NCBI GenBank assembly: GCA_965243135.1
Contig: OZ251539.1
Coordinates: forward strand, 2,080,001-2,144,000
Direction: 5' to 3'
Length of the DNA: 64,000 bases
From: Alphaproteobacteria bacterium
Lineage (GTDB): Bacteria; Pseudomonadota; Alphaproteobacteria; MPNO01; UBA830
A program made the translations under genes and the position numbers. The notes beneath the pieces were generated by a model that did not search any database, was not told where the DNA came from, and saw only the letters and a list, made by a program, of their open reading frames with translations. Below, one piece after another: positions 9,814 to 25,939 of this stretch; position 1 is the first letter of the stretch, and each line of letters opens with the position of its first letter.

Positions 9814-9829
9814 GTTTCATTTCCCTTAA

Positions 9830-10030
9830 TGTGTTGCTAACCCTGAGCTACAGTTCGGTCACATCGTTCCGCGAATCGAAGATTTTTGCGCGGCAGCCCT
9901 CGCCGCTCGAGATTTCGCGCCGAGGGCGGCCTCGTATCGCCCTGTCATCACGCCCTGATGCCCGAACGAGGAATGGTCACGTCGCGACAGGATAACAGCG
10001 CGAGTCCGGGGGAACCATACCCAAAGTTAT
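9830..10030 (+). repeat. Structured dispersed repeat, copy A
   Basis: Shares AACC.(C/T)GAGC, CGTTCCGCGA, CTCGCCG, GCCCGAACG.GGAA.GGT and GCGCGAG.CCG blocks with copies B and C, and CCATACCC.AAGTTAT with copy C. Confidence 0.75.
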
Positions 10031-10563
10031 ATACTGTCGTTAACGGACGATATGACCGATCCATGTACCAAATGATCTGTCCAGATATGGAACGCTTCCA
10101 GACCAAGGCGGCGGCGGCGGGCGGAACAGTTACAGGGACTGAGGGGGGCGAGAGGTGTCGCACCCGTATGCCGAGCCAAGGCGAAGCGGCATGGGCGTTT
10201 CGGAGCGCACCTTCCGACAATGTCGCAGGGCGAGCCGCCGCGTCCGCGTGCGACACATCCGAAAAATGTCTGTCATCAGTCGGCCAGCCGTTCGCCGAAC
10301 CCCAGCATGATCGGGGACAACACCGGCAGAATCCCGCAGCGTGAACAGGCAGACATGCGCTCCGCCCGGCGCTGTCCTTCTCATTAACCCCGGCCGCCGA
10401 GTGCTGCGTGCCGTCTACGGTGCGGTTTCGTAGCGCCGGACTCGTACTTCGCCGCAATGCTGCTTCCAGGATGCCTCCAGCGTTGTCGACCGCGCCCGGC
10501 AGGTTGAAGGCGAAACTACGGACGGACTGGCCAAGTATCGAGATGCCGGGCTATCCTCGCTGC

Positions 10564-21765: not shown

Positions 21766-22737
21766 TCACGCGGCCGCCGGAAAACGGTCGCGGTCGTGCG
21801 CCGCCGCCAGGTCGATCTCGGGCCCGACCGGCACGATTCCCGTCGGATTCACGTTGCGTTGTCCGCCATAATAGCCCTTCTTGATTCCTTCGACATCGAC
21901 GATCTCGGCGATGCCGGGCGTCTGGTAAAGGTCCAGCGCGTAATTCCATAGATTGGGATAGTCCTGGATTCGGCGGATATTGCACTTGAAATGGCTGAAG
22001 TAGACGAAATCGAAACGGATCAGGGTCACGAACAGCCGCCAGTCGGCTTCGGTCGGACGATCCGCGACGAGATACCGGCGCCCGGCGAGGCGCCGTTCGA
22101 GAAAATCCAGGGTCTCGAACAGCGGATAGACGGCTTCCTCGTAGGCTTCCTGGGTTTTCGAGAACCCGCACCTATACACGCCGTTGTTGAGAGTTCGATA
22201 GATTCGTTCGTTGAGCGCGTCGATCTCGGCGCGGTGCGCCGCCGGGTACAGGTCGAGCGACGGGTCGCCCCATTCGTCGAACTCCGCGTTCAACATTCTG
22301 AGGATTTCCGACGATTCGTTGTTCACGATCGTCCGGTTCCGGCGGTCCCACAGCGTCGGCACCGTCACCCGGCCGGTATAGCCGGGGTCCGCGGCGACAT
22401 AGACTTCATGGAGTTCGAGAAGTCCGTCCGCGCCGGGCCGGAGGTCGTCGATCCCCTGCGAGTACACCCAGCTGCGCCTGCGAGGCCTGTCGGAGAGCGT
22501 GATCGAAATCGCGTTTTCCAGCCCCTTGAGCCGTCGCGCGATCTGGGTGCGGTGCGCCCACGGGCAGGACGGCGCGAGAAACAGGTGGTAGCGGCCGGGT
22601 TCCGCTTTGAAGCCCGAGGAGCCGTCGGCGGTAACGAATTCGCGGAAGGACGACTCGGTACGCACGAACGCGCCCCCTTCGGGGTTGCGATATTTCGCGT
22701 CGTCTTCGATCCATTTGCCGTCGATCAACATGCCCAT
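21766..22737 (-). CDS. yqjG: Glutathionyl-hydroquinone reductase (GST Xi/omega-like)
   Basis: CPWAHR, VTVPTLWD, IVNNES, NNGVYRCGF, YFSHFKCN. Confidence 0.9.
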   Translation of the reverse strand: MGMLIDGKWIEDDAKYRNPEGGAFVRTESSFREFVTADGSSGFKAEPGRYHLFLAPSCPWAHRTQIARRLKGLENAISITLSDRPRRRSWVYSQGIDDLRPGADGLLELHEVYVAADPGYTGRVTVPTLWDRRNRTIVNNESSEILRMLNAEFDEWGDPSLDLYPAAHRAEIDALNERIYRTLNNGVYRCGFSKTQEAYEEAVYPLFETLDFLERRLAGRRYLVADRPTEADWRLFVTLIRFDFVYFSHFKCNIRRIQDYPNLWNYALDLYQTPGIAEIVDVEGIKKGYYGGQRNVNPTGIVPVGPEIDLAAAHDRDRFPAAA

Positions 22738-22961
22738 GCCAGCGCGCTCCTTATGCGTTCGGCCCGATATTACGGCGTCGCCGCGATCGGGCCAAGCCGC
22801 CGACGGCGCGAGGCGTGCGCGAACGCCGGCGGACGGAAAACGGCGAGCGGGACGGAGCTTTGCGGCGCCGTCGCGCGACCGCCCGGTTCAGGCGATTGAA
22901 CGAGGCTGCGGGTGCTTCCGGGCCGATGGCGCGACGGCCTGTTTGGGTGCCGTTCCGCCGT

Positions 22962-23185
22962 TGCGTAAGCAACCCCGAGCTAAAGCCACAAAAGACCGTT
23001 CCGCGAATCGACAATTTGTTTTGCGGCGGCGCTCGCCGAGTTCAAGAGCGCGACGCCGAAGGCTACCTCGCCTTGTCTTTCGCCGCGGCGCCCGAACGCG
23101 GAACGGTGATGTCGGCGCGCGACAGCGGCGCGAGGCCGACACCCAACATGCTACGGGGCGAGCAGGCGCGGATCACGAGAGTTTG
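22962..23185 (+). repeat. Structured dispersed repeat, copy B
   Basis: Internal perfect stem ACCGTTCCGCG (22995-23005) / CGCGGAACGGT (23097-23107); colinear with copies A and C. Confidence 0.8.
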
Positions 23186-23320
23186 CTCAGTTTCCCGGAA
23201 ATTTGCGCCATCCCGTGGAGATGCGCCGCCAGCCAGCCCGCCTCCCGGCCCAGCACCGGGCAGAATCGACGCCAAAAACGTCGCGAACGCCGCACCAAGC
23301 AGCCGCGCAATGGGCGCGCG

Positions 23321-24469
23321 TCATTTCGCCGATACGCGACATGAGTTATCCGCCGGAGCGGCGTAGCGCCGCCCTTTGGCGGACGCGACATCCTTTTCCC
23401 AAGCTTCGCGGCATCGAGGATCGTACAGGGCAACGTTTATTCCGGCGTTCTCCGAAAAGGCCGGCTGCCGGTCCTTCCAGGCCCATGCGCCGTCCCATTT
23501 CGCGTCGCCGAGCTCCCGCGCTCTGGCGAAATCCGCGCCGCTCAGGTTGGCGCGGGAAAAATCGGTCTCCCAAACGATGGCGCGAACGAACCGGGCGCCG
23601 GACAGGTCGGCGCCGACGAAACTCGCCCTCTCGAGGTCACCGTAGGTCAGATCGGCCTTGGCGAGACGTGCGGCGACGAAACGCGCGCCGCGAAAAATTC
23701 CGGTCGACAGATCGGCCTCGGTCAGATCGGCGCCGACAAAGGAGGCTTTCGACGCATCGGCTCGCCGGAGTTTGGCGTGCTTCATGGACGATCCGTCGAG
23801 CCTTGCGGAACGCATTGTGGCATCGATGAGGAACGCGCCATCGGCATCCGCGCCGACCAGAATCGCGTGCGACAGGTTGCTGTCGTTGAACCGTGCGCCC
23901 TTCAGCAAGGCGTTGCTCATGTCCGCCTTCTCGAACTGCGCGCCGCGTGCGCGCACGCGGGTGAGATCGGCATCCTTCAGGATCGCGTCGGTAAAATCCG
24001 TCCTGTCGAACCAAGCTTTTCGCAGGCTCGCTCCGCTCAGGTTAACCTCCCGCGCAACGGCCATAACGTCGTCGCCGGTTCGGGCCTCCACTTCGTCCGC
24101 GGCAAACGCGGTCGAAGTCGGACGCAGGTCGACCCAACGGAGATCCTCGCCTCTGGAATACAGATACTCCAGCGCTCCCGCGACGCCGGAATTTCCCGGA
24201 ACGTGGCTCGACACCCGGCCCCACGAATAATGCAGCCCCTGGTTCGAGTGGATGGACCACGACACGGCCAGCGAGATGCCGGCGATTACCAGCGAGGCGG
24301 CGGACACGATGATCGGCGCTCCGATGCCGAGGCGACCGGCGACCTTTCCCGACGGCGCAATAAGGAAGGTCCAGAACCTCATCCAGCCCCGTTTCACCCG
24401 AGCACCGCCATTATCACCGTCGTTCCGCATGCTTGGTAAGATCTGCGTTTCCCGCAGCATGTCAATCAA
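23321..24469 (-). CDS. Membrane-anchored pentapeptide-repeat protein
   Basis: One TM segment followed by about 30 A(D/N)LXX-type pentapeptide repeats; start uncertain (TTG 24469 or ATG 24460). Confidence 0.85.
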   Translation of the reverse strand: MIDMLRETQILPSMRNDGDNGGARVKRGWMRFWTFLIAPSGKVAGRLGIGAPIIVSAASLVIAGISLAVSWSIHSNQGLHYSWGRVSSHVPGNSGVAGALEYLYSRGEDLRWVDLRPTSTAFAADEVEARTGDDVMAVAREVNLSGASLRKAWFDRTDFTDAILKDADLTRVRARGAQFEKADMSNALLKGARFNDSNLSHAILVGADADGAFLIDATMRSARLDGSSMKHAKLRRADASKASFVGADLTEADLSTGIFRGARFVAARLAKADLTYGDLERASFVGADLSGARFVRAIVWETDFSRANLSGADFARARELGDAKWDGAWAWKDRQPAFSENAGINVALYDPRCREAWEKDVASAKGRRYAAPADNSCRVSAK

Positions 24470-24690
24470 ACTCTCATGACCTGCTCACCCCGATAACTTC
24501 GGGTATGGCTCTTCCGGCCTCGCGCCACTCGCCGACATAACCGTTCCGCGTTCGGGCGGCGCGGCGCGAAGACTGGGCGACGCGGGGCAGCCTTCGGCGT
24601 CACGCTCCCGAATTCTCGAACGGCGAGCGCCGCCGCGAAAAAATCTCGCGGAACGGTTTTGTGTGCCGGCGGCTCGTGGTTAGTTACACA
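24467..24690 (-). repeat. Structured dispersed repeat, copy C (inverted relative to B)
   Basis: Stem AACCGTTCCGCG (24539-24550) / CGCGGAACGGTT (24647-24658); reverse complement aligns with B including the tail GGGG(C/T)GAGCAGG..TCA(C/T)GAGAGTTTG. Confidence 0.8.
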
Positions 24691-24781
24691 AAGAATGGCG
24701 TGCGCAAACGCTTCCTGCATGGACAGAACGGGGCGGCTGCGCCATCATCGGTTGGCTACCCTATGCCGAAAAGGACGGTCG

Positions 24782-25939
24782 ATGGAATACGAGCTCCCCG
24801 AAGAACTGCGCATGCTCAAGGAAACGCTGCGGCGTTTCATCGACAACGAGGTCATTCCGATCGAGCGCGAGGCCTACGACGGCCCCGAAATGCTGCCCGA
24901 AGTCCGCGAAAAGCTGGAGCGCCGCGCCCAGGAGCTCGGCATCTGGGGCGTGGACGTGCCCGAGAGCCTGGGCGGACTCGGCATGGGATTGCTCGCCCGG
25001 GCCGTCATCTGGGAGGAAACCGGTCGCACGATCGCCTTCCCTCGCCGCAAGAAGTGGATATTCGGTCCGGACGTCAGTCCGCTCCTCGCGGAATACGCCA
25101 ACGAAGAGCAGACGGAACGGTACCTGAAGCCCTGCATCTCCGGGGACAAAAAGCCCGGCTTCGCGCAGACCGAACCCGATGCCGGCGGCGACCCGTCGGG
25201 CATGAAGACGACGGCCGTCCGCGACGGCGACCATTACGTCATCAATGGAACCAAGCGGTTCATTACCGGCGCCGACACCGCCGACTTCTTCCAGGTCATC
25301 TGCGTCACCGATCCCGAAAAAGGGGTTCGCGGCGGCATTTCCTGCATATTGGTCGATGCGGACGCGCCGGGCGTGAAGATACTCCGGAAGCAGCGGACCA
25401 TGATGGACGACCAGCCCTGCGAAATGGCGTTCGACGACGTGCGCGTGCCGGCCGGCAACCTCGTCGGCAAGGAGGGCGACGGGTTCCGCATGGCGCAGAC
25501 CTGGATCACCATGGGGCGCATCCGCCACGGCGCCATCGGCGTCGGCACGATGGAGCGCTGCCTGGAACTCGGCGCGTCCTACGCAAAGGACAGGGTCACC
25601 TTCGGCAAGCCGCTCGCCGAGCGGCAAGCGGTCCAGTGGATGTTGGTCGACACGTTCGCCGACATCCACATGGTGCGGCTAATGATCTACGCGGCCGCCG
25701 CGAGGCACGACGCCGGAGAGGACATTCGCTGGGACTCGTACATGTGCAAGTACATCGGCGACCGCAAGGCGTTCGAGGCAACCGACCGCTGCTTGCAGAT
25801 CCACGGCGGCCTCGGGCTGACCACCGATCTTCCGATCGAAAAGCTGTGGCGGGACGCGCGCTCGTTCATGATCACCGAAGGGCCGGAAGAAATCCTGAAA
25901 CACGCCCTTCAGCGCCACGTGCTGAACCTTTACGGCTGA
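24782..25939 (+). CDS. Acyl-CoA dehydrogenase
   Basis: FAQTEPDAGGD, INGTKRFIT, RVTFGKPL, QIHGGLG, ITEGPEEI. Confidence 0.93.
   Translation: MEYELPEELRMLKETLRRFIDNEVIPIEREAYDGPEMLPEVREKLERRAQELGIWGVDVPESLGGLGMGLLARAVIWEETGRTIAFPRRKKWIFGPDVSPLLAEYANEEQTERYLKPCISGDKKPGFAQTEPDAGGDPSGMKTTAVRDGDHYVINGTKRFITGADTADFFQVICVTDPEKGVRGGISCILVDADAPGVKILRKQRTMMDDQPCEMAFDDVRVPAGNLVGKEGDGFRMAQTWITMGRIRHGAIGVGTMERCLELGASYAKDRVTFGKPLAERQAVQWMLVDTFADIHMVRLMIYAAAARHDAGEDIRWDSYMCKYIGDRKAFEATDRCLQIHGGLGLTTDLPIEKLWRDARSFMITEGPEEILKHALQRHVLNLYG

Follow-up and report, generated by a model that had tools for sequence, protein, structure and literature searches.

Recombinases of the IS110 family of insertion sequences (IS) are described as acting with an RNA made from the long non-coding end of the element, the loops of which pair with donor and target DNA around a short core (PMC11208160, PMC11187229); according to the same accounts, the IS1111 group has subterminal inverted repeats of 7-17 bp and its long non-coding region downstream of the gene. 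For IS621, recombination is reported to proceed with only half of the match offered by the RNA, the donor site being left intact (10.64898/2026.08.31.748434). A short mobile relative has been described as well: MITEPpu9, the ssr9 module of ISPpu9 (IS110 family, Pseudomonas putida KT2440), is presented as moved by an IS110-family transposase and as occurring in eight copies, with circles of its own and tandem duplication in some strains (PMC12288879), and an ISfinder entry, 'ISNme5_IS110', is counted among the known transposable elements of the miniature inverted-repeat type (MITEs) in PMC11602168. No IS110-family miniature derivative beyond MITEPpu9 and this one entry was found in the literature searched, and in the two papers that introduced bridge and seek RNAs the main text uses neither 'MITE' nor 'miniature'. 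The subject here is a repeat of about 245 bp in the genome of an alphaproteobacterium (G000, a single contig of 6.10 Mb with 65% G+C), three copies of which (A, B and C) lie in the stretch of 64,000 nucleotides that was analysed (the window, G000:C1:2080001-2144000). The repeat is in all likelihood a MITE-like, non-autonomous derivative of an IS110-family IS, generated by internal deletion.

The repeat family and its borders

The copies in the window, in window coordinates, were located with a family profile built on A, B and C and iterated once over the whole genome (nhmmer):

9823-10050, plus strand: copy A (profile positions 3-234, E 6.4e-48; also seen in the alignment)
22958-23187, plus strand: copy B, old and diverged (profile positions 6-246, E 2.9e-48)
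24694-24465, minus strand: copy C (profile positions 6-246, E 3.9e-67)

An earlier note, made from the sequence alone, had described three colinear non-coding copies almost exactly at these places, and their alignment is indeed colinear, with a mean column identity of 73% across 303 columns. A family of only three did not hold, as the profile gives 84 matches in the genome at E <=1e-5: 40 are full length (~245 bp), 19 retain just the left end, 14 retain just the right end and 11 are internal pieces, with 52 on the plus and 32 on the minus strand. Between pairs of the 40 full copies, median identity is 78% and the highest value 99.6%, the latter between two copies with unrelated flanks, and block indels (5, 6 and 1 nt) between copies mark subfamilies. 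One reading frame of the 252-nt family consensus is free of stops; the 5-nt and 1-nt indels between copies, judged from the sequences, argue against a coding role.

The borders of the repeat are sharp. The element begins with YTGTGTAACTA directly after TTTG and closes with CATGAGMGTTTG, and the flank beyond is unrelated from copy to copy. The four bases preceding it are TTTG in 28 of 46 unique non-tandem left flanks, with one-base variants in 13 more, while the final bases of the element itself are TTTG in 37 of 42 unique right ends; head-to-tail tandem neighbours have a single TTTG between them, common to both. Empty and filled versions of one site are present in the genome: the IS copies at 331748, 1986811 and 2995731 read ...GGCACAG TTTG TTTTCGGGAAACC, and two other copies of the same IS hold one element exactly after the TTTG, with the element's terminal TTTG restoring the continuation. 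The repeat is an insertion placed after TTTG (CAAA in gene orientation), with the tetranucleotide at both junctions. Neither terminus, YTGTGTAACTA or CAAACKCTCATGAT, is an inverted copy of the other, and the ends are asymmetric. The repeat thus has the borders of an IS110-family element, which lacks terminal inverted repeats and shows its core at both junctions and once in the empty site. It also has the general properties of a MITE, being short, non-coding and present in many copies, with ends in common with an autonomous element and with the parent's target at its flanks. The terminal inverted repeats of a MITE in the strict sense are absent, and because the termini are not mutually inverted the repeat is called MITE-like, as MITEPpu9 has been.

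The family was not found by blastn with copy C in 40 relatives from the genus, family and order, where only four matches at E ~1e-4 appeared. Scans with exact motifs of 185,579 species genomes returned 0 and then 4 matches, none of the 4 recognised by the family profile, and two further scans of metagenome contigs returned 0 and 0; since exact motifs were used in all four of these public-collection scans, diverged relatives could be missed.

Probable descent from an IS110-family insertion sequence

The parentage of the repeat is indicated by four long forms of 1.7 kb. These composites consist of the repeat's left ~175 bp, 1.45 kb with remnants of an IS110-type gene, and the repeat's right ~65 bp, the split copies being interrupted between profile positions ~175 and ~171, and wherever the 1.45-kb segment is near-complete (four copies) it lies within a repeat copy, with no variation in position or orientation. 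The composites at 331574-333269 and 1986987-1985295 are 99.5% identical, repeat halves included, although their flanks are unrelated from TTTG outward, so that the 1.7-kb unit bounded by the repeat's ends must have moved whole.

Open homologues of the broken gene (~60% amino-acid identity, frames of 429-528 aa) occur in 6 of 77 other genomes of the order. The IS in one of these, G054, is 1768 bp long and is present in two copies that are 100% identical and divergent beyond; its open gene of 461 aa matches PF01548 (E 3e-22) and PF02371 (E 4e-23), and through this homologue the family has the DEDD recombinase, with IS110 N-terminal and Transposase_20 C-terminal domains, that characterises IS110. 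A congener, G004, carries an IS of 1744 bp in two copies, 97.9% identical. In full-length alignments the independently defined ends of both IS fall on the outer ends of the composite, and the composite and the relatives have in common the motif YAAAC..CATG..CCCCGTnGCATGWAAC at the end upstream of the gene (left end, LE) and GTTWCACnGCAAA at the downstream end (right end, RE). Similarity to the relatives' IS runs on through the junction between the repeat and the supposed 1.45-kb insert, and the family's end motifs are absent from these inner junctions. As the relatives' IS ends lie at the outer ends of the repeat, the repeat corresponds to an IS with its interior deleted. In the reading direction of the gene, it consists of the initial ~70 nt of the LE followed by an RE of ~175 nt, the recombinase gene and most of the LE having been deleted. 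A 7-nt subterminal repeat (TGTAACT/AGTTACA), one arm of which lies ~38 nt inside the LE, shows one compensatory change between lineages, the pairing being altered on both sides (GTGTAAC/GTTACA here, GTGAAAC/GTTTCA in G054), and guide-like segments are located upstream of the gene, as in the IS110 group.

The parent itself appears to have decayed in this genome. PF02371 has six matches, four of them in the four composites and two short ones elsewhere, and PF01548 has two, both in composites; every one of these is a fragment, and searches with both domains found no intact IS110-type recombinase gene in the assembled genome. Compared with the intact homologue, the gene is frameshifted in all four composites, where it is spread across two to three frames and has a stop and a small deletion, and the family is therefore probably a fossil in this chromosome. 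An intact copy could sit on an unassembled replicon; a search of a plasmid collection with a recombinase fragment gave only Bacillus/Peribacillus matches, 39-45% identical. The remark in the earlier note that no recombinase adjoins the copies stands, in that the gene remnants lie only far outside the window and are all broken.

Three observations speak against the proposed derivation. The profile of the mini-element does not find the relatives' IS (nhmmer, none at E <=10), so that the homology of the ends rests on terminal alignments of ~50 nt and ~20 nt, anchored by the gene, together with the position of the motifs. The long hairpin in the RE has no counterpart in the relatives' RE. Finally, pairs of 99.5-99.6% identity exist in an assembly that has no intact recombinase, which implies that the helper was recently lost or was not assembled, or that gene conversion has taken place. 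Set against the mapping of the relatives' ends and the movement of the 1.7-kb unit as a whole, these points leave derivation from an IS110-family IS by internal deletion strongly favoured.

Two further IS110-related loci were observed. An IS110-like fragment at 2997179-2997777 follows, in the opposite orientation, just after the tandem partner of the composite at 2995518-2997183; its identity of 64% over IS positions 386-818 hints at an older, second IS lineage. In another genome of the order, G053, a different repeat of 330 bp gives 74 matches (22 in G054, 20 in G056 and 10 in G049), including a perfect tandem array of three units (L038:3464-4596; G053:C1:545863-546852). Each of the eight recombinase-gene matches in G053 has, no more than ~1 kb away, a fragment of this unit that begins at about position 36, and in the aligned loci the IS abuts the unit at that position, which indicates that in that genus the IS targets a repeat. 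The 330-bp tandem units were accordingly rejected as an analogous mini-element, the IS sitting inside the unit at about position 36 as in a target repeat.

Guide-like segments and a possible mode of mobilisation

The guide-like segments were compared in seven IS copies, namely three composites of this genome and one IS each from G054, G004, G002 and G056, in which the LE measures ~290-370 nt and contains conserved blocks. In 7/7 copies the left junction has its best sense-strand match in the LE interior at one and the same homologous position (133-164 nt in), over 6-9 nt that comprise 2-4 flank nucleotides, the core and the first nucleotide of the IS; the RE end plus core is best matched at 200-228 nt, likewise in all seven. 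The variable bases preceding the core co-vary: the three composites have CC, AC and GA, and the four IS from elsewhere have CT, CC, CA and AA. Two mini-elements were found within IS copies, and both occupy precisely the core of the first guide-like segment, where the IS DNA resembles its own target. The flanks of the mini-elements favour the guide-variant bases, with T or G at +1 in 36/42 and T or C at +2 in 38/42, and no base preference was detected among these flanks on the other side of the target.

These correspondences, as far as the sequences can be read, suggest that a recombinase and a bridge RNA mobilise the repeat in trans. Excision and insertion of the mini-elements would be carried out by this enzyme with the help of an RNA from the LE interior, the two segments of the LE matching the two junctions. 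The mini-element would retain just those donor sequences that are recognised by RNA and enzyme, and target choice would demand hardly anything beyond the 4-nt core and two nucleotides on one side. As both guide-like segments lie in the deleted part, the short repeat would need the helper for the enzyme as well as for the RNA. A target choice as lax as this may have made possible the ~84 copies, the tandem arrays and the nested insertions, and the half-match behaviour of IS621 would fit, by analogy, with the one-sided targets, the tandem arrays and the high copy number seen here. It is accordingly conceivable, though the proposal is tentative and falls somewhat short of an even chance, that the repeat is a natural 'donor-only' mini-substrate of a bridge-RNA recombinase, which would have reached ~84 copies since its helper accepts a 4-nt core with ~2 matched bases on one side, and which would insert even into the helper's guide-coding DNA and beside resident copies.

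Several findings count against this proposal or fall outside it. Some of the single junction matches are weak, shuffled sequences doing as well in up to 75/500 cases on the left and up to 215/500 on the right, and in the composite at 3708776 the second segment has A where the RE end has G. The preference for G at flank position +5 (26/42) is not accounted for by guide pairing. Mobilisation as such is read from sequence only, the circle junction, the transcript and the RNA all being inferred. If the proposal is correct, the family would record the minimal in vivo requirements in cis of such an enzyme, with ~70 nt from the LE and no more than 175 nt from the RE, and would represent a natural instance of one-sided ('half-match') target recognition.

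The site occupied by copies B and C

Copies B and C are located between two conserved genes and on either side of a third (window coordinates):

21766-22737, minus strand: glutathione S-transferase (GST)-like (yqjG-type) gene, left border (PF13410, PF13409; orthologues 78-85% identical in 4/4 congeners)
23321-24469, minus strand: pentapeptide-repeat protein gene, bracketed by copies B and C (open reading frame (ORF) list; PF00805, E 3.5e-40)
24782-25939, plus strand: acyl-CoA dehydrogenase gene, right border (Pfam; orthologues 88-92% identical in 4/4 congeners)

The inverted arrangement of B and C around the pentapeptide-repeat gene, on which the earlier note had remarked, is confirmed. Copy B has its RE terminus at 22958, toward the GST-like gene, and its LE terminus, ...GAGAGTTTG, at 23187, toward the pentapeptide gene; copy C has its RE terminus at 24694, toward the acyl-CoA dehydrogenase gene, and its LE terminus at 24465, against the pentapeptide ORF. 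Copy A, by comparison, has its RE terminus at 9823 and a degenerate LE terminus, the final ~12 nt of which are lost. The apparent ending of copy C at the start codon of the gene is an artefact of the ORF definition, since the TTG at 24469 is the one that closes the element itself; in the ORF, ATG first occurs at 24460, 9 nt inside.

The closest family member of copy B is 73% identical. The nearest relative of copy C in a pairwise comparison of the family copies is 85% identical, and over 198 nt copy C is 90% identical to the genome copy at 1399878-1400075. Copies B and C are just 65% identical to one another. As each is closer to other members of the family than to its neighbour, they are separate, old insertions, made independently beside an accessory gene in a variable intergenic spot. 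The GST-like and dehydrogenase genes are separated by 157 bp in the congener G003 and by 184 bp in G004, compared with 2044 bp here, and none of the four congeners has a pentapeptide homologue at this site, two weak matches elsewhere in G002 being the only ones found. The pentapeptide gene is a single copy with no paralogue in the genome, and its G+C content at third codon positions (GC3) is 0.75, compared with 0.80-0.86 in its neighbours. In G002 the spot equivalent to 22738-24781 holds 2.0 kb with a PIN-domain gene and in G001 3.4 kb with a periplasmic binding protein gene, neither of them with the repeat. All genomes aligned have retained a short block (TGGACA ... ATCATC/GG) upstream of the dehydrogenase gene. 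Beyond this block the intergenic DNA of the congeners is too diverged to be aligned, so that the points at which B and C inserted could not be placed exactly. Contigs of four sequencing runs represent the same strain and one strain of 97-98% identity, with the same pieces joining B to the gene and C to the dehydrogenase, and neither an empty site nor a convincing inversion at B/C was present among them.

Distribution of the copies in the genome

The mini-element copies cluster at ~1.33-1.40, 1.93-2.10, 2.99-3.02 and 3.70-3.83 Mb, where crude gene calls based on GC3 are thin. These regions may be genomic islands or mobile-DNA junkyards, and the window lies at the edge of one cluster. Relative to the same calls, which cover 67% of the genome and are too rough to assess a link with accessory genes, 17/84 matches touch a call and 5/84 overlap one by more than 50 nt. 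Several copies (near 2000173-2000417, 1332421-1332645, 928367-928607, 4059625-4059841 and 2994444-2994517) have both flanks in common, with ...GCGGCAACACTCGCC TTTG on the left and TTCTGAAGACYGAGCACCCGCGAGGCC on the right, which places them either inside a larger second repeat or at a strongly preferred, repeated target. Two split copies, at 1970991-1971492 and 1990111-1992261, have identical left and identical right flanks and are interrupted, by ~264 bp and ~1.9 kb respectively, at profile positions ~93-135; this pair looks like a local segmental duplication with later insertions. A run of ~18 G stands immediately beside one copy (left flank, 3154239-3154260).

Alternative explanations

The repeat could in principle be an independent mobile element of another class, such as an HUH-type IS200/IS605 or IS91 derivative inserted 3' of a tetranucleotide, with the IS110-type gene as a mere passenger, acquired by one copy on a single occasion and transported with it afterwards. 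A pattern of tetranucleotide-bounded copies in head-to-tail arrays, without terminal inverted repeats, also fits single-strand HUH transposition as in IS608 and IS91, and here the same tetranucleotide flanks one end and closes the other, the terminal inverted repeats are lacking, arrays are present, and the IS110 gene is broken in all four long forms. However, the genome has no match to a Y1 transposase (PF01797, 0 matches) or to TnpB (PF07282, 0 matches), with positive controls detected, and so does not show the marks of an IS200/IS605 (PATE) or REP/RAYT system; no Y2 transposase was matched in it either, a weak negative, as the control genomes gave no Y2 signal. The outer ends of the repeat moreover align with the ends of intact IS110-family elements, the homology crosses the supposed insertion junction, and the inner junctions are without the family's end motifs. 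An IS200/IS605 or IS91 parent was rejected on the missing Y1, TnpB and Y2 matches and the end homology, and a separate element class with a passenger gene is an unlikely explanation. A host sequence serving as a REP-like landing site for an IS110-family IS, as REP does for IS621 and ISPpu9, would account for the constant position and orientation of all four near-complete IS copies in the repeat. Such behaviour has parallels both in the related IS of G053, which does sit in a different, 330-bp repeat, and in the IS110 elements that are described as often targeting repeats (PMC11208160, PMC12288879). Yet the IS and the repeat halves moved together (99.5% identity with unrelated flanks), the IS of the relatives terminate where the repeat has its outer ends and not at the inner junctions, the repeat itself has an empty and a filled site, and no 1.45-kb IS copy without the repeat halves and with a core of its own is among the blastn matches. 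The insertion of an IS110 element into a host repeat was consequently rejected, the 1.7-kb unit having moved whole and the relatives' ends being the repeat's outer ends, and a host repeat that is not IS-derived is considered very improbable.

The two remaining explanations, a structured RNA and a gene-capture or inversion system, are those raised by the earlier note alongside the ends of a non-autonomous element; only the last has proved right, the repeat being two IS110-family ends minus the recombinase gene. A family of structured non-coding RNA genes, cis-acting leaders or terminators under selection for RNA structure would be in keeping with the long hairpin, which has a consensus fold of -110 kcal/mol with 97% of cells paired over 23 copies, and with the position of copy C immediately upstream of a gene. 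The hairpins in the window are the following:

22995-23107, plus strand: long hairpin of copy B (read from the sequence; fold)
24539-24658, minus strand: long hairpin of copy C (read from the sequence; fold)

The closing stems that had been noted are present, 11 bp in copy B (ACCGTTCCGCG at 22995-23005 with CGCGGAACGGT at 23097-23107) and 12 bp in copy C (24539-24550 with 24647-24658). As a single strand, copy C folds better than all of 200 shuffles (z -3.2), but the fold of copy B (z -1.35), equalled by 24/200 shuffles, is not clearly above chance. RNAalifold on the 23 copies predicts 53 pairs, one of which has a compensatory change, with a covariation term of -0.04 kcal/mol. The 97.0% of paired cells equals the value in shuffled controls (97.0%; 243/500 as high), and the covariation score, 0.093, is below the shuffled mean of 0.097. 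The hairpin is inherited from the ancestor of the copies, and selection for it has no sign in the predicted covariation. With Rfam 15 the window yields two tRNAs only, the region 22800-24800 has a best E of 2.5 with everything under the gathering score, and the IS loci give nothing relevant. Copies on both strands, truncated, nested and in tandem, are likewise out of keeping with RNA genes, and RNA-structure selection as the basis of the family is highly unlikely; single copies may have acquired a secondary use. That B and C jointly form the ends of a gene-capture cassette, or of an invertible segment with the pentapeptide gene, finds some support in their inverted orientation with the same ends inward around a gene, in the absence of this gene from the site in 4/4 congeners (flanking genes 157-184 bp apart in two), and in one contig joint on opposite strands, 23148/24583, from runs X2 and X4. 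This joint, however, has short sides (28-38 nt), lies inside repeat sequence and can be mimicked by contigs of other copies, and the strain of ~97-98% identity has contigs over the same B-gene and C-dehydrogenase pieces. The two copies, at 65% identity and each nearer to other members, do not form a pair, and excision of the IS110 type joins left and right ends in direct order, whereas the LE termini of B and C both face inward. The pentapeptide gene is single copy and so has no second bracketed copy (inverted pairs around other genes were not surveyed), and the same spot in G002 and G001 holds unrelated genes without this repeat. A joint role of B and C in capture or inversion is, of all the explanations weighed, the least credible and can practically be set aside.

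Comparison with known systems

With the repeat read as the remnant of an IS110-family IS, a conspicuous unannotated family (~84 pieces in a 6.1-Mb genome) can be accounted for as ordinary mobile DNA and taken off the list of candidates for new RNAs or recombination systems. The bridge recombinases of the IS110 family are under development as programmable genome-editing enzymes, and from the many natural insertion sites the donor and target rules of one clade could be read; they also indicate that elements of this kind can disperse with much less selectivity than has been seen in the REP-specific examples studied to date.

Correia, ERIC, RUP and REPIN elements are, like the repeat described here, short, non-coding, mostly intergenic and hairpin-forming, and occur in tens to hundreds of copies. 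Classical MITEs and REP-type repeats have terminal inverted repeats with DDE-type parents, or RAYT partners; the present repeat differs from these in its asymmetric ends, derived from an IS with a DEDD recombinase, and in the fixed tetranucleotide at both junctions. IS492 of Pseudoalteromonas atlantica, a full-length autonomous member of the IS110 family, resembles it in having a short T-rich target, CTTGT / CTTGTTA, on both sides; we know of no high-copy miniature derivative of IS492.

IS621 and the IS110 group, as described in PMC11208160 and PMC11187229, have in common with the present family a DEDD recombinase (PF01548 and PF02371), a gene preceded by a long non-coding LE, a short core repeated at both junctions, matches between parts of the LE and the donor and target sequences, and the lack of true terminal inverted repeats. 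For IS621, however, the core is given there as CT, with pairing over 8-14 nt to specific targets, REP among them, whereas here the core has 4 nt, about two flank positions are constrained on one side, and the RNA is predicted from sequence. Two features of the IS1111 group as characterised in the same papers are present as well, namely the 7-nt subterminal inverted repeat and the long RE. The closest described counterpart is MITEPpu9. Both elements, as far as MITEPpu9 is covered in PMC12288879, are short, non-autonomous and bounded by the ends of an IS110-family IS, occur alone, beside a recombinase gene or in tandem, and are presumed to be moved in trans by the recombinase of the IS. MITEPpu9 is reported to have 8 copies, to carry a small RNA (sRNA) gene of its own, with variant end boxes, and to insert within REP sequences at a core of AG (PMC12288879). 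The element of this genome, by contrast, has 84 matches, is a plain internal deletion with a 4-nt core (CAAA/TTTG) and little other target need, and its parent IS copies are all broken. MITE-like derivatives of the IS110 family are thus already known from MITEPpu9, and what is noteworthy in the present family is its copy number, its 4-nt core, its loose, one-sided target and its insertion into the guide-coding DNA of its own parent.

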